NCBI GenBank assembly: GCA_964354685.1
Contig: CAYHAM010000002.1
Coordinates: forward strand, 71,058-135,057
Direction of reading: 5' to 3'
DNA length: 64,000 bases
Source of the DNA: an uncultured Methanosarcinales archaeon
Lineage (GTDB): Archaea; Nanobdellota; Nanobdellia; Woesearchaeales; JAGVZT01
A program made the position numbers and the translations under genes. The notes under the pieces were generated by a model. It saw nothing but the letters and a program-made list of their open reading frames with translations. It did not search any database and had not been told where the DNA came from. Each line of letters starts with the position of its first letter. The first letter of the stretch is position 1. Of this stretch, positions 3,179-59,650 are shown in pieces.

Positions 3179-3268
3179 TCAAGAACAGCTCTGATCACTC
3201 AAAGATTTCAGAACTAGTTCCAAAATCTCTTTTCTATTGTAAGTATGTATAATAACACTTACTCTCAT
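3179..3268 (-). pseudogene. Truncated duplicate of the 5' end (29 codons then stop) and promoter-proximal sequence of the GT2 gene at 1..1803
   Basis: Reverse translation MRVSVIIHTYNRKEILELVLKSLSDQSCS* parallels MRVSVIIPTYNRKEVLELVLKSLAYQSY of the GT2 gene; ~90 nt of DNA (gtataataacacttactctcatctatcccc...) aligns with 1760-1850 at ~75% identity. Confidence 0.6.
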
Positions 3269-3375
3269 CTATCCCCCCAGATATTACAATAATACCAATC
3301 CTTATATATTTTTATGTTTTATAACCTCTCCAAAATAGCAAAAATTATATATCCTCATATATATTATTTGAGTAT

Positions 3376-5406
3376 ATGAAGATACTCTTCTATGCCATAA
3401 ACGGGGTGGGTTTAGGCCATGTGAACAGAACCCTAGCAATAGCCAAAGAGATAAGAAAACTAAGCCCAAAAGCCCATATAATGTTTGTCACCAATTCTCA
3501 ATTTCCTGATTTAATTGAAAAAGCTAACTTCCCTTACATAAAGCTGCCAATCTTTGAAGGAGACCCTCTTACAAAGGATATGACAAGATACATACCTTAT
3601 TTAGTAAATGAAAAGCTGATAGAAGCAACCTTGTATGACTATGAGCCAGATGCTGTTGTTTATGACACCCATTTTCCATTTGGAACTGTTAAAAAAGCAA
3701 GTGAATTCAATGTTAAAAACATACTAATACTTAGAAAGCTGAAAAACAAGGTTCTTGATGATTACATAAAACAGTTTAAGCATTTTGATCTAATAGTCTT
3801 GGCCCACTCTGAACAAGAGTTTTTAGATATGAAAGTTTCAAAACAATTAATACAAAAGATAAAGAATAAAGGCATTGTGTTTGTTGGTCCAATCATAAGA
3901 AAACCAGAAAATATAGAACCAAATTACAACTTAAACAAATTTAACATCCTTGTAACAGCTGGTGGAGGAGGTTGGAATGATTCCAAGAAGTTTGTTGAAA
4001 TTTGTCTAAAAGTTTGCAAAAAAATTGTTAATAAAAACAAAAACATCAATTGCTACATCATAACAGGCCCTTTATACAGATGGAATATTAATCATATCAA
4101 AAATAACAACATTATAATCAAAAGCTTTGAACCCAAACTGATAGATCTAATGCAAAAATGTGATTTGGTTGTTTCTCAAGCAGGGTATAATGTATGCAAT
4201 GAAATCATGCTAACAAAAACACCAGCAATAATTATCTCAAGAAAAGACCCACTTGAAGACCAAAGAGAAAGGGCAAAATGGCTTTCAGAAAAAGGTGTTG
4301 CAATAACAATCAACACCTTAAATGAAAAAACATTAACAGAAGCTATTGAAAAGTTTTACCAAAATAAAGTTCTACAAACAAAGATGAAGAGAGCATTTTC
4401 TAATATTAAACTTGATATAGGTAATGAAAGATTATCAAAGATGATAATAAATTTGATACCAAAAAGAATAGAAAAACAGGTGAAGCTTTCAAGAAAAAAA
4501 CATAAACTCCTGGATTCAAAATATAGGCAAACCCAACAAATAGAAAAAAACCAAACAAATCTGTTGGAAGAAAAAGGCATACAGGAACAATGGGATACTC
4601 TACTAAAAAAAGAAACAAACCTTAGACAAAAACAAGGCGATATCTATTCCAAATTAGAACCATTATATAAAAAAATAAGAGAGTTAAAAAAACAAACACC
4701 ACAACAAGAATACATTAAACAACTCAATCCATTAGAAAAACAAAAACAACAACTCTTAAAACAAAACAAAAAACTAGAAGAACAAACTAAAAAACTAAAA
4801 GAACAAAACAAAACACTAAAAAACAAAGAGCCCTTTAAAACACTACTAGAACTACAAAAAGAACTCGATCAAAAATATGAAGAACTCTTTGAGCCATACA
4901 ACATCCAGATTGGAGAAGTAATACAGAAACAAGAGCTTGTTCTTGAGGGAAAATACACTGAAAAGACTTGGAATGCACTTGAAAAACAAAAACAAAGTTT
5001 GGAATCAGAAAAACACCAATTCTGGCAAAAAGAGTTAAAACCAATAGAAGACAAAGTTAACCTATCCAAAGCCAAAGTTAAAACATACACTAAAGAACAT
5101 GGCATCTTAGATATTAAAGAGATTGACAAAGATATTGAATCTCTATGGCAAGAAATCAACAAAAACAACAAAGAGCTACAACTTATAGACAACGACATAG
5201 AAAATCTCAACAAAGAAACTAATAAAATCCAAAAATTAGTTGACAAAAAATACAACAAACAACTCCTTCCTCTAGATTACAAGCTAGACAAAATACTCAA
5301 CGAAAAACAAGACTTCCTAAAAAAGCACAAACTATTTAAAGATTTCAAAAGACTGGACAAGGAAAGGGAAAGATTAAATAAAGAGATTTCAGAGCTGCAG
5401 GATTAA
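3376..5406 (+). CDS. UDP-glycosyltransferase (GT1/GT28 MurG/MGT-like N-terminal domain) fused to a ~300-aa K/E/Q-rich coiled-coil tail
   Basis: MKILFYAINGVGLGHVNRTLAIAKEI... (G-rich loop + GHVN), LVTAGGGGW, SQAGYNVCNEI; C-terminal half is low-complexity coiled coil (QKQQLLKQNKKLEEQTKKLKEQNK...). Stop at 5406, next ATG at 5408. Confidence 0.7.
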   Translation: MKILFYAINGVGLGHVNRTLAIAKEIRKLSPKAHIMFVTNSQFPDLIEKANFPYIKLPIFEGDPLTKDMTRYIPYLVNEKLIEATLYDYEPDAVVYDTHFPFGTVKKASEFNVKNILILRKLKNKVLDDYIKQFKHFDLIVLAHSEQEFLDMKVSKQLIQKIKNKGIVFVGPIIRKPENIEPNYNLNKFNILVTAGGGGWNDSKKFVEICLKVCKKIVNKNKNINCYIITGPLYRWNINHIKNNNIIIKSFEPKLIDLMQKCDLVVSQAGYNVCNEIMLTKTPAIIISRKDPLEDQRERAKWLSEKGVAITINTLNEKTLTEAIEKFYQNKVLQTKMKRAFSNIKLDIGNERLSKMIINLIPKRIEKQVKLSRKKHKLLDSKYRQTQQIEKNQTNLLEEKGIQEQWDTLLKKETNLRQKQGDIYSKLEPLYKKIRELKKQTPQQEYIKQLNPLEKQKQQLLKQNKKLEEQTKKLKEQNKTLKNKEPFKTLLELQKELDQKYEELFEPYNIQIGEVIQKQELVLEGKYTEKTWNALEKQKQSLESEKHQFWQKELKPIEDKVNLSKAKVKTYTKEHGILDIKEIDKDIESLWQEINKNNKELQLIDNDIENLNKETNKIQKLVDKKYNKQLLPLDYKLDKILNEKQDFLKKHKLFKDFKRLDKERERLNKEISELQD

Positions 5407-5407
5407 T

Positions 5408-6841
5408 ATGCGGAGGATAAAAGGGGTGGATAAAAACACCATTATAAAGTATTCTTTATTAGTACTAACCTTATTTTTAATACCTTTATTATCACTCTTT
5501 TTTATAGAGGGCACAACCCTTGCTTCAAAACTTGATTTCCTCTTTCAAATCCAAAAACCATTTTTAGTGTTGGGAGTTATGTTTGTGATATTGTTTTATC
5601 TAACAAAAGATAAAAAGATCATAAAAAAACCTAAGCTAAATTATTACTTTTTGATATCATCAATAATCCTTTTTCTCATATTGTCTGCACTTCAAATACC
5701 TTTTTTTGATGCCTTGCAATCTGGTTTAATACAAGTAACAGATCACGGGATAAAATATGACAAGGTTGGTTTTCTTGGTAATACTTTTTACAAAGGAGAA
5801 ACAACGCTAAATCAAAACATAAGTTTGATGAAAAGGATTTACTTAAACGAAATACCAGAAAGCCCTAAACTAAAATGGTATGGTTCATGGTTAGATGGCG
5901 ACAATGATGGTGTTTTTGGACGGGATTTTAAGATTTTTTTAAACATTAACAATCATGGGTATGATATAACTCAACAATTTTCTTCCCTTGACCAAGGAAG
6001 TACAGGATTGATGGAAACAACCATTGATCCACAAGACCTAAAAATAGGTGAGAACACATTGAGTTTTTGGATTCAATCCAACAAAAGCTTTGAAGCCATA
6101 ACATTGATAAAACATATTTACTATCATGAAAACTCTTTCATAACCTATGATAATGGAAAAACATGGCTGCAAGATGATGGAATGTTGCTAGCATTCCTTG
6201 AAAAAGATATCAAAATACATCCAATAAAGAGAATAATCTTCTCCTACAAACCTTTGTTTGTTCTAATATCCTCTATATTGTTATTCATAGGCTTTTTTGG
6301 TTTAAACTATTCAAAAGACTTGTTCAAAAAAGCAGATCTTGAGATATATGCTTCTGCTTTTGCAAGCATAGGTTTTTTCTATGGCACAGCTTTCATTAAA
6401 CAAAACTGGCGACCAATAGCAAACATTGTTGTAAGCCTAGTGTATGCACTTAGCTCTATATTTTTTAAAAATGTAATTGTTGATATAACCAATCCACACT
6501 GTCCATTCCTTGTTGTTAAAGATTTTTCATCAAGAATCTGTGAATCATCTTCTGGAGTTGAGTCAATAGGATATTTTACCTTGTTATTTTTCCTAATATT
6601 AATAACAAACTGGAAATCAATTGACAAGAAAAAAACATTGATCTTTTACTTCATTGGACTAGTAGGTAGTGTTATTGTAAACACCTTAAGGATATTCTCA
6701 ATAATAATGGTAGGAATCTACATAGATCCTGAGTTTGCCCAAGGAATATTCCATACAAATGTTGGTTGGATACTGTTTTTAATATACGCTGCTGCTTATT
6801 GGTTTTTATTATTACCTTACATTAAGAAAAAGAAAAAATGA
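5408..6841 (+). CDS. Archaeosortase/exosortase-family transpeptidase with a ~190-aa extracytoplasmic insertion after TM3
   Basis: Polytopic membrane protein; conserved exosortase motifs seen: Cys in C-x-SS-G-x-ES (RICESSSGVESIG), Asn/Arg in VNTLRIFS, C-terminal H..GW (FHTNVGWILFL); K-rich C-terminus. Confidence 0.7.
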   Translation: MRRIKGVDKNTIIKYSLLVLTLFLIPLLSLFFIEGTTLASKLDFLFQIQKPFLVLGVMFVILFYLTKDKKIIKKPKLNYYFLISSIILFLILSALQIPFFDALQSGLIQVTDHGIKYDKVGFLGNTFYKGETTLNQNISLMKRIYLNEIPESPKLKWYGSWLDGDNDGVFGRDFKIFLNINNHGYDITQQFSSLDQGSTGLMETTIDPQDLKIGENTLSFWIQSNKSFEAITLIKHIYYHENSFITYDNGKTWLQDDGMLLAFLEKDIKIHPIKRIIFSYKPLFVLISSILLFIGFFGLNYSKDLFKKADLEIYASAFASIGFFYGTAFIKQNWRPIANIVVSLVYALSSIFFKNVIVDITNPHCPFLVVKDFSSRICESSSGVESIGYFTLLFFLILITNWKSIDKKKTLIFYFIGLVGSVIVNTLRIFSIIMVGIYIDPEFAQGIFHTNVGWILFLIYAAAYWFLLLPYIKKKKK

Positions 6842-7431
6842 AAGCATACTTAATACCACTTTTAACATATATCCTAACCCCCTTAATATTAAATTTCTTT
6901 ATTAAAAATATTTATATCTCGTATTTTGTTGGTATTATTCTGACAGGAATTCTGCTTTTTTATTTCAGAAAACACTACAAAATAAAATTAAGAATAAAAC
7001 TCTTACCTTTTGTTATTGGAATTATCATTTTCCTTGTTTGGATATTTATCCCAAATATTTATCCTTTTTTCATTAGCACACAATTTGTTCCAACAAACAC
7101 TTCTTTTTTATTATTCAAATTGCTTGCAATGATAAGTGTTGTTCCCTTGACAGAAGAGCTCTTTACTCGTGGTTTCTTGATAAGATACTTTGCTACAAAA
7201 GATTGGAAAAAGGTTCAAATAGGCAAGTTTACCTGGCTTTCCTTTATTATTACAGTTCTGTTCTTTGGCTTTTCTCACAACAGGTGGTTATCAGGACTAA
7301 TTGTAGGAGTATTACTCAATCTTTTGTTATATAAAACAAAGAATTTGGGAGATTGTATTATTGCTCATAGCTTTGCAAACCTGTTGGTAGGAGTCTATGT
7401 TATATACACAAACTCTTGGTTTTTGTGGTGA
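6838..7431 (+). CDS. CPBP-family (CAAX/Abi, PF02517-type) intramembrane metalloprotease
   Basis: Motifs TEELFTRGF (EExxxR), FGFSHN (FxxxH) and IAHSFANL (second His) in a 6-TM protein; start overlaps archaeosortase stop by 4 nt. Confidence 0.8.
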   Translation: MKAYLIPLLTYILTPLILNFFIKNIYISYFVGIILTGILLFYFRKHYKIKLRIKLLPFVIGIIIFLVWIFIPNIYPFFISTQFVPTNTSFLLFKLLAMISVVPLTEELFTRGFLIRYFATKDWKKVQIGKFTWLSFIITVLFFGFSHNRWLSGLIVGVLLNLLLYKTKNLGDCIIAHSFANLLVGVYVIYTNSWFLW

Positions 7432-7488
7432 TTTATCACTCTAAAATCCTCAAAAACTAATTTAAACTACTTATATTTAAACAGTAAT

Positions 7489-8406
7489 ATGGGGGTTAGT
7501 ACAGAGCTAAAAGAGTGGGTTAACAAGGGATTAAAAAAAGGCTACTCAAAGGACAAGCTTAGACAGGAGCTTACAAAGGCAGGTTATTCTGATAAGGACA
7601 TAACTTCTGCTTTAAAGGAAACAGGATCTAGCCCAAAGCGTAATCCTCTAGTTATTGGTATTGTTTTGATTGCAGTTATTATTGGATCTATTTACTTGTT
7701 TAATGCATTGCAGACAAAGGTCATTGTTCTTGAGGCTGAAAAGGACTTTAATTTGGGAGAGTGGGTGAGGGTAGAGCCGGAAGGCGACTATGTTGTTATA
7801 AACAACGAGACTGAAATTTGGAGTAGACCTTTCAACCTAAAAAAACTTTCCAATTTTCGCGAAGCACAAAAAATAAATGTCAGGGTTATTGCCAAAGGCG
7901 GTGAGGGGGAGGAGGAAAACCTGATTCTCATTTTAGAGGTTGTTAATCAGAGCCATTATGGAAATTTTGAGAACTCAACAATTTATCCTTCAATAGTCAC
8001 TGTCATTTCAGACGTAAGCGGCAATAAGACAATAGAGACCCGCTTCTCTGGCAAATATTTGAACGGAGTGATGAATGACAAATTGGTTCAGAAAAAAGGC
8101 ACTTTTGATACGTCCAACGCAGTCTTTATGAATAGCAGATTCCAAGATATGGTTATCGAGGGCAACAAAACAATCTTTTATTACAGAAAGGATAAATGGC
8201 CTGTGCTTTCTGTTGTCTTTGGAGAGGACCTCAACAACTGGAAGTTGCTGGAGATATCCTCAACAGAGTGGCAAAGTTTTCTGATTCAGTTTGACATGAA
8301 TAGGTTTTCAGACTTTGAAAATGCGGAATTAATATTCGAGTTAAGCACAGACACTTTAAACCCTATACCTACATACATTGATAAAGTTTATGTCACTTTA
8401 GAATAA
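7489..8406 (+). CDS. N-terminally anchored membrane/surface protein, paralog A (short cytoplasmic N-domain, one TM, ~230-aa external domain)
   Basis: MGVSTELKEWVNKGLKKGYSKDKLRQELTKAGYSDKDITSALKETGSSPKRNPLVIGIVLIAVIIGSIYLF...; first ~80 codons nearly identical at DNA level to 8756.. paralog. Confidence 0.6.
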   Translation: MGVSTELKEWVNKGLKKGYSKDKLRQELTKAGYSDKDITSALKETGSSPKRNPLVIGIVLIAVIIGSIYLFNALQTKVIVLEAEKDFNLGEWVRVEPEGDYVVINNETEIWSRPFNLKKLSNFREAQKINVRVIAKGGEGEEENLILILEVVNQSHYGNFENSTIYPSIVTVISDVSGNKTIETRFSGKYLNGVMNDKLVQKKGTFDTSNAVFMNSRFQDMVIEGNKTIFYYRKDKWPVLSVVFGEDLNNWKLLEISSTEWQSFLIQFDMNRFSDFENAELIFELSTDTLNPIPTYIDKVYVTLE

Positions 8407-8420
8407 ATTTCAAGTAAATA

Positions 8421-8648
8421 CTATCTCAATTTTTTCTTTATTATTATAGACAAACAGATGACGGCTAAAAGTGCTAAGACAGACGTGGCACCAGAAAATT
8501 CTGGTACGCAGTTACAACTCGCGTCGCAAACTTTTGTACCTGGGCAACCGCCGTCACACCCATTGCCTGCAAAACACGCCCCGAAAGCAACCGAAGAACT
8601 AAGTAGGATGAGAACAAACATGGTTAAAACCAAGGCACCTCTTTTCAT
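8421..8648 (-). CDS. Tiny secreted Cys-rich protein with PEF-CTERM-like sorting signal (putative archaeosortase substrate)
   Basis: MKRGALVLTMFVLILLSSSVAFGA (signal peptide) + CFAGNGCDGGCPGTKVCDASCNC (7 Cys in 23 aa) + VPEFSG + ATSVLALLAVICLSIII (TM) + KKKLR. Confidence 0.7.
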   Translation of the reverse strand: MKRGALVLTMFVLILLSSSVAFGACFAGNGCDGGCPGTKVCDASCNCVPEFSGATSVLALLAVICLSIIIKKKLR

Positions 8649-8755
8649 CTTAACAATTCTTTATAGATTTCTAATATATAAAGTTTTTGTTTTTCTGTTT
8701 TATTATTCACAAATAGTCAAAAACTAATTTAAACTACTTATATTTAAGCAGTAAT

Positions 8756-9685
8756 ATGGGGGTTAGCAAAGAGCTAAAAGAGTGGGTTAACAAGGGATTA
8801 AAAAAAGGTTACTCAAAGGACAAGCTTAGGCAGGAGCTTACAAAGGTAGGTTATTCTGATAAGGACATAACTTCTGCTTTAAAGGAAACAGGATCTAGCC
8901 CAAAGCGTAATCCTCTAGTTATTGGTATTGTTTTGATTGCAGTTATTATTGGATCTATTTACTTGTTTAATGCATTGCAGACAAAGGGAATTGTGCTAGA
9001 GGCAGAGAAAGATTTTAAGTCTGGTGACTTTGGTGTGGAGTTCGAGCCCTTTACTGATTACATCAGACTCAGCAGTAATGGCTATATCACAACCGAATCT
9101 CTGAATCTTAAGGAACTTAAAAACTTTGAAAAAGCAGACAAGATCAATGTTGAATTTATTGCCAGAGGAGAAACAGGCAAGGCAGAAAACATAGTCTACA
9201 CATACGAGCTTCTTGATGGTGAGACATTTGACAATTTGGAGGATTCAATGAATTACTCAACCAGGATAACTTTGCTCTGTGATATAACTTGTGACAAGAC
9301 TCTTGAGAAAAGCCTGAGCGGACAATGGCTGAACAGAGTCATGAATGAGAGACTTAACCAGGAAGAAGACACATTTGACCAGGGTGAAATCTTTGTTTCA
9401 CACGCCAAGTTCAAGGACATAACTGTTGAAGGGAACAAAATGGTTATACGATATGAGAGGAGTATCTGGCCTGTTGTTTATGTATCAACCTGGTCCACAG
9501 AATGCTTCTCCTGCAAAAAGCCTGCTGCGGTGGAAATATCTTCACAGGAATGGGAAACCTACACTGTACAGTTTGATTTGGCTGACCCGAAATCAGATTA
9601 TTCCTACCTGGGTATAGAATTGTCAACTGATGAAGAAAACCCAAAGCCGGTCTACATAGACCAAGTAATTGTCAGCTTAAAATAA
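8756..9685 (+). CDS. N-terminally anchored membrane/surface protein, paralog B
   Basis: Same N-terminal 80 aa as paralog A; diverged C-terminal domain with 4 Cys (CDITCDKT...STECFSCKKP). Confidence 0.6.
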   Translation: MGVSKELKEWVNKGLKKGYSKDKLRQELTKVGYSDKDITSALKETGSSPKRNPLVIGIVLIAVIIGSIYLFNALQTKGIVLEAEKDFKSGDFGVEFEPFTDYIRLSSNGYITTESLNLKELKNFEKADKINVEFIARGETGKAENIVYTYELLDGETFDNLEDSMNYSTRITLLCDITCDKTLEKSLSGQWLNRVMNERLNQEEDTFDQGEIFVSHAKFKDITVEGNKMVIRYERSIWPVVYVSTWSTECFSCKKPAAVEISSQEWETYTVQFDLADPKSDYSYLGIELSTDEENPKPVYIDQVIVSLK

Positions 9686-9688
9686 GCC

Positions 9689-9931
9689 TTACCTTAATCT
9701 TTTCTTTATTATCACAGCCAAGACAAAAACACACAGCATGGCTAGGATAGCAGTCACGCTTGAGAATTCAGGAACACACCCACAAGGAGGACCATCACAC
9801 GTCTGAGTGGGAGGAACGCATCCACCGTTACAGCCTCCATATCCGTCATTAACGCACGCACCAAAAACATTTGACGCACTTAACAATAAAACAGTTACAA
9901 GAATTATTAAAACCAAAGCACCTCTTTTCAT
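9689..9931 (-). CDS. Tiny secreted Cys-rich protein with PEF-CTERM-like sorting signal, paralog 2
   Basis: MKRGALVLIILVTVLLLSASNVFGA + CVNDGYGGCNGGCVPPTQTCDGPPCGC + VPEFSS + VTAILAMLCVFVLAVII + KKRLR. Confidence 0.7.
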   Translation of the reverse strand: MKRGALVLIILVTVLLLSASNVFGACVNDGYGGCNGGCVPPTQTCDGPPCGCVPEFSSVTAILAMLCVFVLAVIIKKRLR

Positions 9932-10017: not shown

Positions 10018-12381
10018 ATGAGAGTGGCACTATTTGCCCCAGAATTCCCTCCTAAGATTGGAGGCATGGAGAGATATGCATTTGAGCTAGCAAAAAGTCT
10101 CTCTAAAAACAACAAGGTTGGTGTTATAACAAGAGAAGATCATAAAAATATTGATTACAAAAAGCTTGGTTTAGCAAGTGTTAATGTTAAATGTTTACTA
10201 ACTTTAGATTTTGACCAAGATTTAGAGCTTGTTCTAGATTATTTAAAAAACAACAAAGCAGACATTTTACATATCAACAATGCAGGATTTTCTCCTGCCA
10301 TACCCAAGATAAAATCAAGACTTGATATCCCAGTTGTTGTTACAGTGCATGGAAAGGACTTCCTAAACTCTTTTATCTACACTAAACAAAATAAGAACAT
10401 AAGTAAAGATATACTGAATGCTGACAAAATAATAGCAGTTAGTAACTATGTAAAAAGCAGGATCATTAGACAAGATTTTGAGCCAGACAAGGTTGCTATT
10501 ATCTTACATGGCACAGATATTACCTTATTTAAACCCGAGAAAAAAGACACCAAATTGCTAAAAAAGCTTGGAATATCAGAACAAGACTTTGTTCTTTTAA
10601 CAGTTTCTAGGATTACAAAAAGAAAGGGGATAATACAAGTAATAAAACTCTTGCCAAACCTAATCAAAGAGACACCAAACCTAACATACCTTGTTATTGG
10701 TCCAACAAGAGAAACTGATTATTACAACACAGTAAAATTACTTGTTAAAAAATTAGGGTTAGAGAGGAATGTTATATTTACTGGTTATGTAAAAAATAAG
10801 GAGCTTCCCAAGTATTATAACCTATGTGATATATTTTTAATGCCAACCACAGAACCTTCTGAGGGAGACATAGAAGGCTTCGGGATTGTTTTTTTAGAGG
10901 CAAACTCTTGTGCAAAGCCTGTAATTGGCTCAAAAAATTCAGGTGCTGAAGATGCAATCATCAACGGAAAAACAGGTTTTTTAGTTAATATTAATAATGA
11001 AAAAGAAATAGAAAAAGTAATTATTAGATTATTAAAAAATAAAGAGCTAAGAGAAAAACTAGGAAAAGCAGGAAGAGCAAGGGTTATCAAAGAACTCAAT
11101 TGGAACAATGTGACTAAAAAAGTTTTAAATGTTTATAACAGTGTTATAAAACCCACCATCTACTTCAACAACTACATAATTCACAATGAACACTTTATTG
11201 GTGGTGCAAACCTCTACTACAACGAAGTCTCTCAAATTTTGAATAAACAAGGTTTTAATCACCTTAATTTTCATGATGTTCTAAACAATCCTGACATTAT
11301 TAAAAAGATAAAAAACAAAGACACAGTCATCACAAACTGCGGTCCTTATGCTTACATCTACCATTACTTAAGAAAAAAACACAATCTAAACTTTAGAATT
11401 GTCAGAGATGTTCAGGCAGCACTGTGGTCCGGTTATTTGCTCCAAGAAACTTTATGCTCAAAGATGCAGCAAGATAATGATATTATCTTATTCCCTTCAG
11501 AATACGCAAGACAGCTCTATATCAAGCTATTCCCACACATAAACAAAAACAACTCCTTTGTCTGCTACCCCTGCATGAAATTTTTTCCTAAAATTAAAAG
11601 GGTTAAAAAACCTTCTGATGGCTTGACTATTGGTTATCTTGGAAGAGTAAGTTATGAAAAAAACTTCAAACAATTGTTAGAGGCATTTGTTAATGTTTCT
11701 AAAAAAATAAACACAAAACTCTTAGTCGCAGGAAGAGTGGAAGACACAAGATTTATGCCAAACAATATCAAAAAAATGCTAAATGACAAAGGTATCAAAC
11801 CCAACAACTACACCCATATCAACAATGGGGGATATCTCTCATACAACAAGGTCTGGGAATTGCTACAAAAGATTGATTTACTAATCTTTCCATCAACAGC
11901 AAACGTAGAAACACTCGGACGGGTTATATTAGAAGCTGCTCATCTTAATATCCCAATTATAGCTGCTGAGCATGCTGCTTCTCCCGAACTTTCAGATAAA
12001 AAAAATCTTCTTAAAGTCAATTACTTTAAAAAAGCCAACAGTTTGGTGGGAACCTGTGCTCTTGGAAGTATTGATGTTGATGAGCTATGCAATAAAATAA
12101 CAAATCACAAAAAACTATCAAAAAACACCAATATTAACCAATACAAGGATCATGATAAAAAACTATTAAAGATAATTGATGGAAAACAAAAAACAGAGGC
12201 TTTTAAAAAATTAGATCCAAACATAGCTAACTTCATCACAAAACTCAATGTTGTTGGACTAGATGCAAGTGAAAACCTTATTGAAAAAACCATTCCCATC
12301 ATAAAAAACTTTGATTACAGAAGATTAAGCTATGCCAGAGTTGTGTGCAAAAAGATAAATTTCAAGCCTTATCTCTATTAA
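10018..12381 (+). CDS. Two-domain glycosyltransferase (tandem GT4-like GT-B domains)
   Basis: N-half: GT4 signature EGFGIVFLEANSCAKPVIGSKNSGAEDAIINGKTGFLV; C-half: second GT4-like region ETLGRVILEAAHLNIPIIAAEHAASPEL. Confidence 0.75.
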   Translation: MRVALFAPEFPPKIGGMERYAFELAKSLSKNNKVGVITREDHKNIDYKKLGLASVNVKCLLTLDFDQDLELVLDYLKNNKADILHINNAGFSPAIPKIKSRLDIPVVVTVHGKDFLNSFIYTKQNKNISKDILNADKIIAVSNYVKSRIIRQDFEPDKVAIILHGTDITLFKPEKKDTKLLKKLGISEQDFVLLTVSRITKRKGIIQVIKLLPNLIKETPNLTYLVIGPTRETDYYNTVKLLVKKLGLERNVIFTGYVKNKELPKYYNLCDIFLMPTTEPSEGDIEGFGIVFLEANSCAKPVIGSKNSGAEDAIINGKTGFLVNINNEKEIEKVIIRLLKNKELREKLGKAGRARVIKELNWNNVTKKVLNVYNSVIKPTIYFNNYIIHNEHFIGGANLYYNEVSQILNKQGFNHLNFHDVLNNPDIIKKIKNKDTVITNCGPYAYIYHYLRKKHNLNFRIVRDVQAALWSGYLLQETLCSKMQQDNDIILFPSEYARQLYIKLFPHINKNNSFVCYPCMKFFPKIKRVKKPSDGLTIGYLGRVSYEKNFKQLLEAFVNVSKKINTKLLVAGRVEDTRFMPNNIKKMLNDKGIKPNNYTHINNGGYLSYNKVWELLQKIDLLIFPSTANVETLGRVILEAAHLNIPIIAAEHAASPELSDKKNLLKVNYFKKANSLVGTCALGSIDVDELCNKITNHKKLSKNTNINQYKDHDKKLLKIIDGKQKTEAFKKLDPNIANFITKLNVVGLDASENLIEKTIPIIKNFDYRRLSYARVVCKKINFKPYLY

Positions 12382-14382: not shown

Positions 14383-14650
14383 TAAACACTCGCGAGGTTG
14401 CTACAAATTATTAAAATTTTATTACTAAAAATAACCTTCGCGGGGTTGCTTGTTATAACCTCATTATACGCAACCCCGTGGTGATAGGGTTCCTATCCTC
14501 TTCAGGAAGCAAGGAACCTCAGATAAGTACACGCTTGATATGTCAGAATACCAGAGGTATTCTGAGCATGATCAAAAACAATCTTTGTTGTTTTTGACAT
14601 AAGCAAGAGATATATCACTCGTGAATTATTTTAAAATTAAAAAGAAGATT
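14383..14650 (+). repeat. Copy 1 of a conserved structured intergenic element (hairpin gcggggttgc/gcaaccccgt + 50-nt conserved core + ACTCGTGAATT tail)
   Basis: Core gttcctat..ctcttcaggaagcaaggaacctcagataagtacacgcttgatatg is ~90% identical to 23607-23660; 3' end atcactcgtgaattattttaaaatt matches 23727-23750. Confidence 0.6.
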
Positions 14651-15211: not shown

Positions 15212-17827
15212 TTGATGAAAAATTTTTTTATATTAATGGTTATTTTCCTTGCAATAATTTCAACTGCTTCTTATGCAGCATTCTGGTGTCAATATAGAGT
15301 AAATGATGGAGAATGGGTTACAGGGCATAGTAGTAATACTGAATGTATTTATGAATTATACTGTGCCGAGGGGGATAAATATGACACAAGGATAAGGGAC
15401 ACAGGTACTACTCCTGACACATATCAAAGACTTGGCACACTATGGGGTGTAGCCAGAAGAGTAGGTACTGATGGCACTTGGGGTAATCAGACAGTACCCT
15501 CTTGCTGTAATGATGCAAATGATTGCTTATACGCAAGCAAGTGTTGGGATAATGGTTTAATTGCTGGAAGTATTCCTAACAGACACTACTGTAACAATGG
15601 AATATGGCAAGGAGGTGATGCTGGCTCTACTCGGTGCACAGCTATCAAAGGTTCTGGATATTGGGCTTTAGGAGGAGAGGTTGCTGCTAGCAACTGTTGT
15701 GGAGATGATACTAATGAGTTTCGTATAAGTGGAAGTGGCTACATAAGATGTTGTAATGCTTCCATTGATTGTGTTGATTCTACTGGGACTTGCAGGGATG
15801 GCACAGAGCTGTGTGGAGCTGATGGCAAGGGAGATGGTATTGACAATGATTGCAATGGACAAACAGATGAGATCTGCGAATGCAACCCAAGTGATACAAG
15901 ACAATGCGGCCCAAACACAGAAGATGGTCCATGCGAGTATGGCACACAAACCTGCCAGCCAGATGAGACATGGGGTGATTGCATAGGAGGAGTCTACCCT
16001 ATTAATGAGCTTTGTGTTAATGGAATTGATGATGATTGTGACAACTCCACAGACGAAGTAGAATGCTGTGGAAACGGAGATGATACAGACCCAGGTGAGG
16101 AGTGTGAACCTCCAAGCACATATTTATCATCATGTGACCAATATGGAGCAACATACTTACAAGATTCTTGTGACTATAAATGTGAATTACAGGATGGCAG
16201 CACTTGTGAATCTGGTTATGCTGGCTGCACATCATATTCTGGATGTGATGGAATAGCTCCTGAGACTTGTATAGACACTAAAACCATTTGCACAAGCGAC
16301 TGCCAATATGAAGAAAGGGATAACAACCAAAACTATTGTACTGACTCCACTGGATGTGTTCCTTTCAGTTGGATCCCATCTGGTGAAGATGGTGTTGGTG
16401 AATATGACTTTGTTGGAGATGTTGAATGCTGTGGAGATGACTTTGATGAATTTTCCACATATTACAATATGGGAGCAACTGGTGGTTGTAATGACATCAC
16501 AATTGAAGAATGCATAGGACTGCCAGATAACACAAGTGATATTGCTTGCTGTAATAATCAAACAGACTGTGTTTTCCAAAAAACTTGTTACCCAATTAGT
16601 AGTCTGCTTGATATTGATGGTGATCTTATAAATGGAGAGTTTTGTAGTCAAGTTGATGATACAGAATGGAAAGATTGTGATATAAGCCAAAACGCATGTG
16701 AAAACACTTGTGGTTATACTTATGTAATGGGAGGAGAAAATAACACTTTTGGTGAATATGATGAAGGAAGTTCAACAGAGTGCTGTGGTGATGATGCTGA
16801 TGAAAGTGTTAATTGGAGACAAGTAAGTAGCCAAACAAAATTCTCTGGTTATGAGGAGATCTACTCTAACCCAAGCGATAGAGCATGCTGCCAAAGCCCA
16901 AATAGCTGTGTTTTTAATGGAAAATGCTATATGGATGTAGATGATGTCAAAACCCTTTATGGAGTAACAGATGTATACGACTCTCCTTATAGAAACTTAT
17001 CTTACTTTGATTTAAATAATGATAGTGCGCTAGAAATGTGTGACCCTGGCAATTGGACAGATCCTTATGAATCTGAGGAAGGATGTGAAGATATGGGTGG
17101 TGTATGGATAAAAATTAATGGAGAAGATGTTTGCTATATTTATATCCCACCTGGACCTCCTAGCCCTCCTGAACCACCTGCACCCCAAGAGCCACCTGAT
17201 CCTAATAAACCCCAATACCCTGATCCACCCCCATCAGAGATTGCTGCAACATTCTATGGAAAAGTGGATAATATTGATGGCTTTAACATTAGTGGTGCTC
17301 TAGTTGAGTTTATAGGTACTTCTAAAATAATACCAGGAACAACAATCTGGTATTACACATATACAAATTCATCTGGTAATTACCTAATCTATGTTTTGGG
17401 TAATGCAACCTATGATATACTTGTTTCAAAGCAAGATTACCAATCTTCCTCAAAGATAATCCAATATATAAAAATACAAGATACAAAACAAGTAAACTTC
17501 ACATTAATTAGCTCTTATGAACAATGCACACAAGACTGCACATTCCAAGATGATGAGTATTGTCATGCAAGCTGTGATGGAAGGGTTGGTTGCCAATTTA
17601 ATAGCACTCAAACAAAGAACATCTGTAATGGAAAAGTGAGTGGATGGGTTGTTGACTATAATACAACCCATGAGATTATCTGTTGTGAAAGCTCACCTCA
17701 TGAAAAGAGATATTTACGAGTTGTGAAGATACAAACAGGTATTGATATTAAGAATATTGTGAGAATAATTAGATTGGTTATTCTAAGAGGCAAGCCAGCT
17801 AAGATGATAGTAGATACCTTTGGATAA
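15212..17827 (+). CDS. Large secreted Cys-rich protein with MopE-like putative metal-binding motifs, three CCGDD repeats, Pro-rich linker and C-terminal carboxypeptidase-regulatory-like beta-sandwich
   Basis: Signal peptide MMKNFFILMVIFLAIISTASYAA; GDGIDNDCNGQTDE and GIDDDCDNSTDE; NCCGDDTNEF / ECCGDDFDEF / ECCGDDADES; PPGPPSPPEPPAPQEPPDPNKPQYPDPPP; FYGKVDNIDGFNISGALVEF...NSSGNYLIYV. Confidence 0.7.
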   Translation: MMKNFFILMVIFLAIISTASYAAFWCQYRVNDGEWVTGHSSNTECIYELYCAEGDKYDTRIRDTGTTPDTYQRLGTLWGVARRVGTDGTWGNQTVPSCCNDANDCLYASKCWDNGLIAGSIPNRHYCNNGIWQGGDAGSTRCTAIKGSGYWALGGEVAASNCCGDDTNEFRISGSGYIRCCNASIDCVDSTGTCRDGTELCGADGKGDGIDNDCNGQTDEICECNPSDTRQCGPNTEDGPCEYGTQTCQPDETWGDCIGGVYPINELCVNGIDDDCDNSTDEVECCGNGDDTDPGEECEPPSTYLSSCDQYGATYLQDSCDYKCELQDGSTCESGYAGCTSYSGCDGIAPETCIDTKTICTSDCQYEERDNNQNYCTDSTGCVPFSWIPSGEDGVGEYDFVGDVECCGDDFDEFSTYYNMGATGGCNDITIEECIGLPDNTSDIACCNNQTDCVFQKTCYPISSLLDIDGDLINGEFCSQVDDTEWKDCDISQNACENTCGYTYVMGGENNTFGEYDEGSSTECCGDDADESVNWRQVSSQTKFSGYEEIYSNPSDRACCQSPNSCVFNGKCYMDVDDVKTLYGVTDVYDSPYRNLSYFDLNNDSALEMCDPGNWTDPYESEEGCEDMGGVWIKINGEDVCYIYIPPGPPSPPEPPAPQEPPDPNKPQYPDPPPSEIAATFYGKVDNIDGFNISGALVEFIGTSKIIPGTTIWYYTYTNSSGNYLIYVLGNATYDILVSKQDYQSSSKIIQYIKIQDTKQVNFTLISSYEQCTQDCTFQDDEYCHASCDGRVGCQFNSTQTKNICNGKVSGWVVDYNTTHEIICCESSPHEKRYLRVVKIQTGIDIKNIVRIIRLVILRGKPAKMIVDTFG

Positions 17828-23562: not shown

Positions 23563-23750
23563 TAGCGAGTTGCCAGTGCTTAACCGCAAGAAAGGCAACT
23601 CGTTGTGTTTTTGTTCCTATATTCTCAAGGAAACAAGGAACCTCAGATAATTACACGCTTGATAGAGGCATGTGGAAAATCACTCGCTAAAGAATTTTAA
23701 TTTTAAATAATTATTATGCAACTCGTGAATTGTTTCAAATTTTTTAAAAA
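23563..23750 (+). repeat. Copy 2 of the conserved structured intergenic element (hairpin cgagttgcc/ggcaactcg + conserved core + ACTCGTGAATT tail)
   Basis: ttcctatattctcaaggaaacaaggaacctcagataattacacgcttgataga and gcaactcgtgaattgtttcaaat match copy 1. Confidence 0.6.
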
Positions 23751-59293: not shown

Positions 59294-59562
59294 ATTTTTT
59301 AAGAGAAAGGAGTTTTAGCCTCCTTTTTTCAAAAGCATAGCTAATTTTGTGTTTTATTTCTAAATTCTAATTATCTATTCTCCTTTTTCTTATAGAGAAA
59401 CTCTTTTTCTTTCTTTTCTTTGGAGGAGAGCATCTCTAATTACTAGTTAAAGAGTATTTTAATTATATAAATCTTTCTATTTTCTATAAAGAATCCATTA
59501 AATAGCCTTCTTTTGCTTAAAATAAGCCTATAATAACCTTTTTGTCAAAGAAAAAGTAGCAC

Positions 59563-59650
59563 CACGAGTTGCCTTTTATGTGATTGAACACTGGCAACTC
59601 GCTAATTATTATTTTAATAATTTTATATATGTTATAGCAACTCGCGAGTA
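59563..59650 (+). repeat. Copy 3 (short form) of the hairpin element family (cgagttgcc-N19-ggcaactcg, then gcaactcgcgag)
   Basis: Same hairpin arms as copy 2 at 23568-23611; lacks the 50-nt core. Confidence 0.5.

Follow-up and report, generated by a model that had tools for sequence, protein, structure and literature searches.

Concerted evolution by partial gene conversion between paralogs is known for bacterial tufA/tufB, for rRNA operons and for the tandem opa surface-protein genes of Neisseria. Polymorphic surface and toxin systems, in which a constant N-terminus is joined to a swappable C-terminus, include those of the contact-dependent inhibition (CDI)/Rhs type and the Myxococcus TraA receptor with MYXO-CTERM. 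Here, we describe a pair of paralogous genes, A and B, on a 64-kb stretch of contig CAYHAM010000002.1 (hereafter the window, meaning the whole stretch analysed). The host is a Woesearchaeota (DPANN) archaeon, as the closest database relatives of the locus proteins carry the label Candidatus Woesearchaeota archaeon. Genes A and B, which encode predicted membrane proteins, belong to a tandem array inside an archaeosortase locus, in which each is faced on the opposite strand by a small convergent gene (sA and sB, respectively) for a six-cysteine protein, and the two copies of this two-gene unit are offset by 1267 nt. The array is old, the promoters and first 77 codons of genes A and B (the latter here called the head) were homogenised recently, and the content of units differs between lineages.

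As in known cases of concerted evolution between paralogs, the segment was near-identical within the genome while its orthologs had diverged, its ends were sharp and lay where homology dropped, and the flanks kept an older history. Unlike in those cases, the tract consists of a promoter and a modular 77-codon anchor within a two-gene unit of a DPANN archaeon. The array also resembles CDI/Rhs-type and TraA systems in its sharp border between constant and variable parts, in the small gene that accompanies each variable domain and in its varying unit content. It differs from them in that Pfam, PADLOC and PHROGs returned no toxin, defence or immunity domains, the small gene lies on the opposite strand and its own product is predicted to be secreted, the constant part comprises no more than the 77 residues of a membrane anchor, and the variable parts (the bodies) are under purifying selection. 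The identity of the heads is best explained by ordinary partial gene conversion, a textbook case that is useful and not surprising, in a locus that is moderately novel.

Archaeosortase systems have been described as ArtA with PGF-CTERM in Haloferax volcanii and as ArtC with PEF-CTERM in methanogens and anaerobic methanotrophic archaea (PMC6098224, PMC5244752), and a review of 2018 describes archaeosortases only in Euryarchaeota (PMC6098224). Like them, the window locus encodes a membrane enzyme of this family beside proteins with a signal peptide and what looks like a tripartite C-terminal tail. Unlike in these systems, the enzyme carries only the generic family signature and is extended by a long N-terminal region, its putative substrates are very small peptides with six cysteines that score below the PEF-CTERM cutoff, and the locus belongs to Woesearchaeota.

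Recent homogenisation of the heads in an old tandem array

The two copies of the head repeat (Table 1) differed at six of 270 nucleotides (97.8% identity), namely at positions 7481, 7500, 7502, 7542, 7563 and 7580 of the first copy, which left the genes with one difference in the promoter and two amino acid differences in the anchor. All six mismatches lay within the first 130 nt. The remaining 140 nt (7581-7720) formed an exact run, suggesting that the inner tract is younger. Immediately past 7720, 42 of the next 80 ungapped positions were mismatched and identity fell to about 54%, while the remainder of the two genes was 50-62% identical in nucleotides and 42% in amino acids. The boundary was therefore sharp, lying at 7720/7721 (8987/8988 in the second copy) between codon K77 and codon V78 or G78. 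The first-pass annotation had reported almost identical 5' segments at 7457-7735 and 8724-9002 followed by strongly diverged 3' parts. Over its interval we counted 10 mismatches in 279 nt (96.4%), so that the near-identity stood with natural limits slightly upstream, and the divergence began at an edge rather than being uniform along the genes. The repeat that it described as a pair of genes is real, but the unit is larger, since each copy also includes a minus-strand small gene. On the plus strand of the window, no other 25-mer was present twice.

Nei-Gojobori estimates of nonsynonymous (dN) and synonymous (dS) divergence, and of the proportion of synonymous differences (pS), separated the two parts of the genes clearly. 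Between the paralogs, pS was 0.058 in the head (dS 0.06, codons 1-77) and 0.83 in the body, a saturated value, and this difference rules out chance and plain constraint at the protein level as the source of the head identity. The small genes, like the bodies, were saturated at synonymous sites, so the units were duplicated long ago.

A related contig from Woesearchaeota RBG_13_36_6 (MGFI01000009, here L001) allowed the head identity to be placed in time. L001 holds the same locus, with flanks 81-90% identical to those of the window and likewise two units. The first (B', gene 6392-7318) is the ortholog of window unit B, with a body 91% identical in amino acids, a body dS of 0.19 and dN/dS of 0.27, whereas the second bears a third body type, C. 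We refer to the heads of window units A and B as W1 and W2, and to those of the first and second L001 units as La and Lb. In the orthologous pair W2/La the head was more diverged than the body (dS 0.42 against 0.19), and dS between window and L001 heads ranged from 0.37 to 0.64, compared with 0.06 between W1 and W2. A four-way DNA alignment of 7596-7720 contained 13 sites at which W1 and W2 agreed against La and Lb, and no site with the pattern expected of orthologs. A slot-specific pattern was retained at a few 5' sites (7481, 7500, 7502, 7542 and 7563), a mosaic as expected of patchy gene conversion. Because L001 carries both an ortholog of body B and body C, the split of A, B and C is older than the split of the two genomes, and the identity of W1 and W2 is younger. 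An old duplication with recently identical heads indicates gene conversion or unequal recombination, and the gene conversion proposed from the first reading of the window is thus well supported by the jump in dS at the boundary, the W2/La comparison and the 13 sites against none.

We consider it probable that the locus as a whole was shaped by old tandem units, recent conversion of promoter and head, and unequal turnover of units. On this account, a Woesearchaeota archaeon would carry two old two-gene units in tandem within an archaeosortase locus, each unit encoding a protein with a cytoplasmic three-helix head, a transmembrane (TM) helix and an external beta-rich body, convergent with a gene for a putatively secreted six-cysteine VPEF protein. 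Once the lineage of L001 had branched off, homologous recombination between the units would have replaced the promoter and the first 77 codons in one copy with those of the other, through non-reciprocal gene conversion in one or possibly several patches. The converted tract would coincide with the promoter, the three cytoplasmic helices and the membrane anchor, and end at the head/body junction, where homology collapses. The outcome would be two genes with nearly the same promoter and anchor, in which each body stays with its own cysteine-rich partner. RadA-type homologous recombination may stand behind both the conversion and the turnover of units.

Several observations weigh against parts of this account. 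The tandem arrangement was found in one related genome only, with N-masked stretches that include 69 nt of one head, so that the evidence of phylogenetic discordance comes from four sequences. Nor is conversion of the heads strictly separable from a recent import or replacement of a body plus small gene by double crossover. As to the proteins, the bodies were predicted with a per-residue confidence (pLDDT) below 50 over most of residues 78-305 in two AlphaFold2 runs (alignments of 2 and 5 sequences), genes A and B matched no Pfam or NCBIfam family above cutoff, leaving the bodies without a significant family match, and the curated PEF-CTERM model TIGR03024 gave at best 14.2 bits (cutoff 23), and only for the small protein of L001 unit C.

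Turnover of units and competing explanations

The window contains units A and B and L001 contains B' and C, a difference that supports cassette turnover between the lineages. Each genome has a segment that the other lacks (window 7451-8717; L001 about 7614-8911), and both segments were bounded by repeated heads and inter-unit regions. Unequal recombination could act on such repeated ends to gain or lose whole units and so account for the two contents. Most simply, an ancestral array of three or more units would have been trimmed differently by unequal recombination, though there may instead have been lineage-specific gains of units. Cassette-like swapping of an external domain on a constant anchor, as first suggested for this locus, therefore holds true on an evolutionary scale, at which related heads also occur on about 39 other proteins, but finds no support as programmed switching.

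The most serious competitor is replacement or insertion of a cassette, in which a whole unit, or a segment of body plus small gene, was recently imported from a related strain or sister chromosome with the heads as crossover handles. One crossover would have fallen in the head, and the other at the far end of the segment, in the small gene's conserved start and promoter. Array content that differs between related genomes, extra units bounded by repeats, and the combination in W2 of a 5' head signature in common with Lb and a body orthologous to that of La are all in keeping with import, as is the G+C content of the array (0.35-0.44 at window positions 7350-9900, against 0.28-0.33 in the flanking genes). 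Amino acid composition and foreign origin are both possible causes of this excess. Import alone, however, leaves unexplained the 13 head sites that W1 and W2 have in common and that are unlike both L001 copies, as well as the 140 nt of perfect identity that end exactly at the head/body junction, and units A and B are alike in composition. Since it would use the same recombination machinery, it overlaps with partial conversion of the heads more than it excludes it. We judge import as the sole explanation to be unlikely, while giving it more weight than any other competitor.

Selection at the nucleotide level, on an RNA or an overlapping element, and collapse or polishing of diverged copies by the assembler are improbable sources of the identity. 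A repeat of 270 nt is of a size that short-read assemblers treat poorly, and a Logan contig from ERR3804373, an independent assembly (1949 nt, 100% identical to window positions 5772-7720), broke off precisely where the identical segment ends. This suggests that the same strain was present in that run and that the head/body junction is a branch point of the assembly graph. Against an artefact, the two copies kept six copy-specific differences in their first 130 nt and tandem units were found independently in L001, and a break at this place is what a branched graph would lead one to expect. Nucleotide-level constraint is unlikely because the L001 heads differ at many sites, the predicted fold of the identical segment was unremarkable (z = -0.46) and Rfam gave no match; furthermore, no minus-strand open reading frame (ORF) of at least 50 aa crossed the head.

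Programmed antigenic or phase variation, of which the locus had first seemed reminiscent and in which the external domain would be switched from silent cassettes into one or more expression sites, or turned on and off, would suit a constant 5' region joined sharply to a variable 3' region, predicted surface proteins and the fast-evolving mature part of the small partner (dN 0.255 against dS 0.151 over 27 codons between orthologs), but is the least probable reading of all, as both copies are complete and have promoters one mismatch apart, and body B is well conserved under purifying selection with no rapid diversification seen. Moreover, since bodies A and B are synonymously saturated, they are old alleles and not fresh variants. 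The silent C-terminal cassettes that the first-pass annotation envisaged did not appear: tblastn over the window found no further copy of head, body or small gene, nor were there promoterless partial donor cassettes of the pilE/pilS or vlsE type in the 64 kb, both copies being full-length genes. Among the ORFs on either side of the array (within about 2.0-19.4 kb of the window), Pfam revealed no recombinase; neither inverted repeats nor simple-sequence tracts lay near the locus, and the head had no single-base run or short tandem repeat beyond A8 that could act as a slippage site. Comparisons with PHROGs and PADLOC gave no matches indicating a viral or defence origin.

Promoters and proteins of the units

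Table 1. Coordinates of the features of the locus (window positions unless stated otherwise).
Feature	Coordinates	Strand	Description
GT28-like glycosyltransferase	3376..5406	+	Long coiled-coil tail; conserved left flank, also in L001, L005 and L006
Archaeosortase/exosortase-family protein, 477 aa	5408..6841	+	Long N-terminal extension; presumed processing enzyme for sA/sB
CPBP/CAAX-type intramembrane protease, 197 aa	6838..7431	+	TIGR03008 119.9 bits (cutoff 81.05); PF02517 57.7 bits
Head repeat, copy 1	7451..7720	+	Putative BRE/TATA, ATG at 7489, codons 1-77
Head repeat, copy 1, inner parts	CAAAAAC 7451-7457; TAATTTAAA 7458-7466	+	Followed by three short helices, linker and TM helix
Gene A, 305 aa	7489..8406	+	Predicted type-II membrane protein; external body A beta-rich, 228 aa
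Small gene sA, 75 aa	8421..8648	-	Signal peptide, six Cys, VPEF, hydrophobic helix, KKKLR; convergent with gene A
Head repeat, copy 2	8718..8987	+	ATG at 8756; content as in copy 1
Gene B, 309 aa	8756..9685	+	Architecture as gene A; body B 42% identical (aa) to body A
Small gene sB, 80 aa	9689..9931	-	VPEF, TM helix, KKRLR; architecture as sA; convergent with gene B
Double-domain GT4 glycosyltransferase	10018..12381	+	Conserved right flank; counterpart in L001 and L004
L001 small genes	7313-7567; 8619-8864 (L001)	-	

Each head begins with a CAAAAAC-TAATTTAAA block (7451-7466 and 8718-8733) that sits 23 nt ahead of the ATG and looks like an archaeal B recognition element (BRE) and TATA box, as might serve a leaderless mRNA. 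The block was almost invariant in all four heads of the window and L001, with La deviating at three of the seven BRE-like bases. A ribosome-binding site had been proposed in this place, but the sequence ahead of the head ATG contained no site of the Shine-Dalgarno type. The upstream edge of head copy 2 adjoins the divergent promoter of sA, and a similar block, AAAAAC-TTTATATA, was found on the minus strand 26 nt ahead of the ATGs of the small genes.

AlphaFold2 predicted three helices in the head (residues 5-16, 21-30 and 35-45, at pLDDT 72-87) and, after them, a TM helix modelled at a pLDDT of about 46-60. A lysine-rich N-terminus and the PKRN motif ahead of the TM helix suggest that the N-terminus lies inside the cell and the C-terminus outside. 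A full HMMER scan of 1.84 billion representative proteins found a related head module on about 39 other proteins (P0007-P0045), which matched only positions 1 to about 80. In these the module, with the motif GLKKGYSK...L..AGYS..DI and without a Pfam family, was N-terminal and sometimes in tandem, and it was followed by unrelated C-termini that included a 1733-aa alpha-2-macroglobulin and several cysteine-rich proteins. Beyond the head, the only matches in the same scan were the cluster representative of the query itself (P0001) and one 140-aa fragment. A word-indexed search with the 305- and 309-aa proteins likewise found only the two paralogs (P0001 and P0002), and exact-sequence look-ups of P0001, P0002 and P0006 returned no record. 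Scanning of genome contigs added one head-only locus (L003), and scans of metagenome contigs with a protein profile and with a degenerate DNA pattern of the head gave no match.

A profile search of PDB sequences with the body returned no matches at E<=10. The CBM60 family (carbohydrate-binding module; PF16841) had no match in the window proteins but scored 13.5-23.9 bits in five more distant relatives, below its cutoff of 28.2, and hhalign linked the C-terminal 81 columns of the window bodies to these relatives weakly (probability 14%, E 0.002). As the family matches were below threshold and the hhalign link was weak, we regard the carbohydrate-binding module as no more than a lead; the same holds for a body in the form of a beta-sandwich that might bind carbohydrate or another ligand.

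Both small proteins, sA and sB, start with a signal peptide (MKRGALVL...FGA), followed by some 27 mature residues that include six conserved cysteines; the VPEF motif comes next, and then a hydrophobic helix with a basic end. L001, L004, L005 and L006 have counterparts that are placed and oriented in the same way. A tail of VPEF or DPEF, about 20 hydrophobic residues and KKKLR or RWRMKP, with the three-part layout of exosortase/archaeosortase sorting signals, could be seen in sA, sB and four relatives, although the curated PEF-CTERM model stayed below its cutoff. A lipobox (FGA|C) was considered as a feature of the family and rejected, the homologs in L005 and L006 having no cysteine at that position. 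Between sB (9692-9931) and its L001 ortholog (7316-7567), the 27 mature codons in which dN exceeded dS kept all six cysteines, while the signal peptide and the tail of PEF motif and TM helix had dN/dS of about 0.2-0.3. The faster change of the mature part is compatible with a possible role in recognition, although 27 codons are too small a sample for such a claim. Neither small protein was present in a collection of 15 billion proteins, and the GenBank record of L001 has an ORF called on the opposite strand in place of the small gene, which points to an annotation gap for likely archaeosortase substrates.

The archaeosortase locus and its relatives

The presumed processing enzyme matched the exosortase/archaeosortase families PF09721 (47.5 bits, cutoff 25.7) and TIGR04178 (48.9 bits, cutoff 23), with the match confined to residues of about 346-470. 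By eye, the N-terminal part resembled a soluble stretch enclosed by TM helices. The motifs C-x-S-S-S-G, N-x-x-R-I-F and F-H-T-N-V-G-W were conserved with the homolog in L005. No model of an Art subfamily (ArtA-ArtE) matched at E<=0.1, and all matches to Xrt subfamilies were below their cutoffs. A search among 5.8 billion proteins found only five relatives, two of them labelled Candidatus Woesearchaeota. In all three of the contexts listed for relatives of the archaeosortase (L004, L005 and one ENA contig) a CPBP protease gene was nearby. The CPBP protease of the window had about 90% nucleotide identity to that of RBG_13_36_6, and the two fell into the same protein cluster at 90% identity.

This coupling of an exosortase-type enzyme to a CPBP protease is reminiscent of XrtE/VPEID-CTERM systems (TIGR04162), and the VPEF of the window resembles VPEID. 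The archaeosortase and the CPBP protease matched the two halves of the fused XrtE model with 38 and 70 bits, respectively (cutoff 150). Unlike in XrtE systems, the two are separate genes here and the host is archaeal, and the anchored beta-domain partner has no counterpart in those systems. The locus also shares features with PEP-CTERM/EpsH loci, in that its protease passed the TIGR03008 cutoff and glycosyltransferases flank it, as in loci linked to exopolysaccharide.

The pairing of genes recurred in L004, L005 and L006 as an anchored or lipoprotein-like protein convergent with a cysteine-rich protein. The former starts with 'IV(I/L)EAE' and ends with '(Y/F)ID-x-h-x-h', and the latter ends with (V/D)PEF, a TM helix and basic residues and is 69-70 aa long in L005 and L006 and 372 aa in L004. 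Homology of the bodies of these anchored proteins to the window bodies has weak sequence support (hhalign, as above). The logic of the locus, which joins an anchored protein and a cysteine-rich partner to an archaeosortase, a CPBP protease and glycosyltransferases, thus appears to be conserved in other Woesearchaeota. By analogy with the action of ArtA on PGF-CTERM proteins (PMC6098224), the adjacent archaeosortase, perhaps together with the CPBP protease, may cleave the VPEF tail and leave the small proteins anchored to lipid, and we infer that each body works with its neighbouring small protein. More speculatively, the units may be specificity cassettes of a surface system peculiar to Woesearchaeota, each comprising an anchored beta-sandwich receptor and a cognate six-cysteine mini-protein that is processed and anchored to lipid by a private archaeosortase/CPBP pair, which act in recognition between cells or of a host in a DPANN symbiont and use the heads and unit ends as recombination handles. 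We hold this to be doubtful, with somewhat less confidence than we give to import. If it were true, the flanking transferases would perhaps glycosylate the mini-protein, and lineages would shuffle, gain and lose cassettes A, B and C.

Further features were noted around the array. An 871-aa protein (15212-17827, plus strand) matched a CarboxypepD_reg-like domain with 24.5 bits, below the cutoff of 32.3, and showed weak tblastn similarity to cysteine-rich small proteins; it may be another surface component of the neighbourhood. A 399-aa protein in L005 was visibly cysteine-rich and also had a weak match to a CarboxypepD_reg-like domain. Upstream of the locus, a direct repeat of 104 nt (1721-1824 and 3187-3290) had 78% identity at a spacing of 1466 nt. 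An element of about 100 nt occurred in three intergenic regions, at 14440-14545 (+), 23565-23665 (+) and 59549-59640 (-), with one copy about 140 nt upstream of tRNA-Gln. It consists of two hairpin-forming parts, GCGAGTTGCC...GGCAACTCG and GTTCCT...AGGAAC, and had no match in Rfam at E<=0.1; it could be a small RNA not yet described, or a repeat with a regulatory role.

The locus is a rare variant of an archaeosortase combined with a CPBP protease that was, within our searches, confined to a few Woesearchaeota and is poorly annotated, as the minus-strand small genes, which had gone unannotated, illustrate. Its likely substrates are tiny cysteine-rich proteins, each of which has an orphan partner anchored in the membrane. 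Little is known of how the surfaces of DPANN archaea are built and varied, and this modular locus, variable between lineages, offers concrete candidates.

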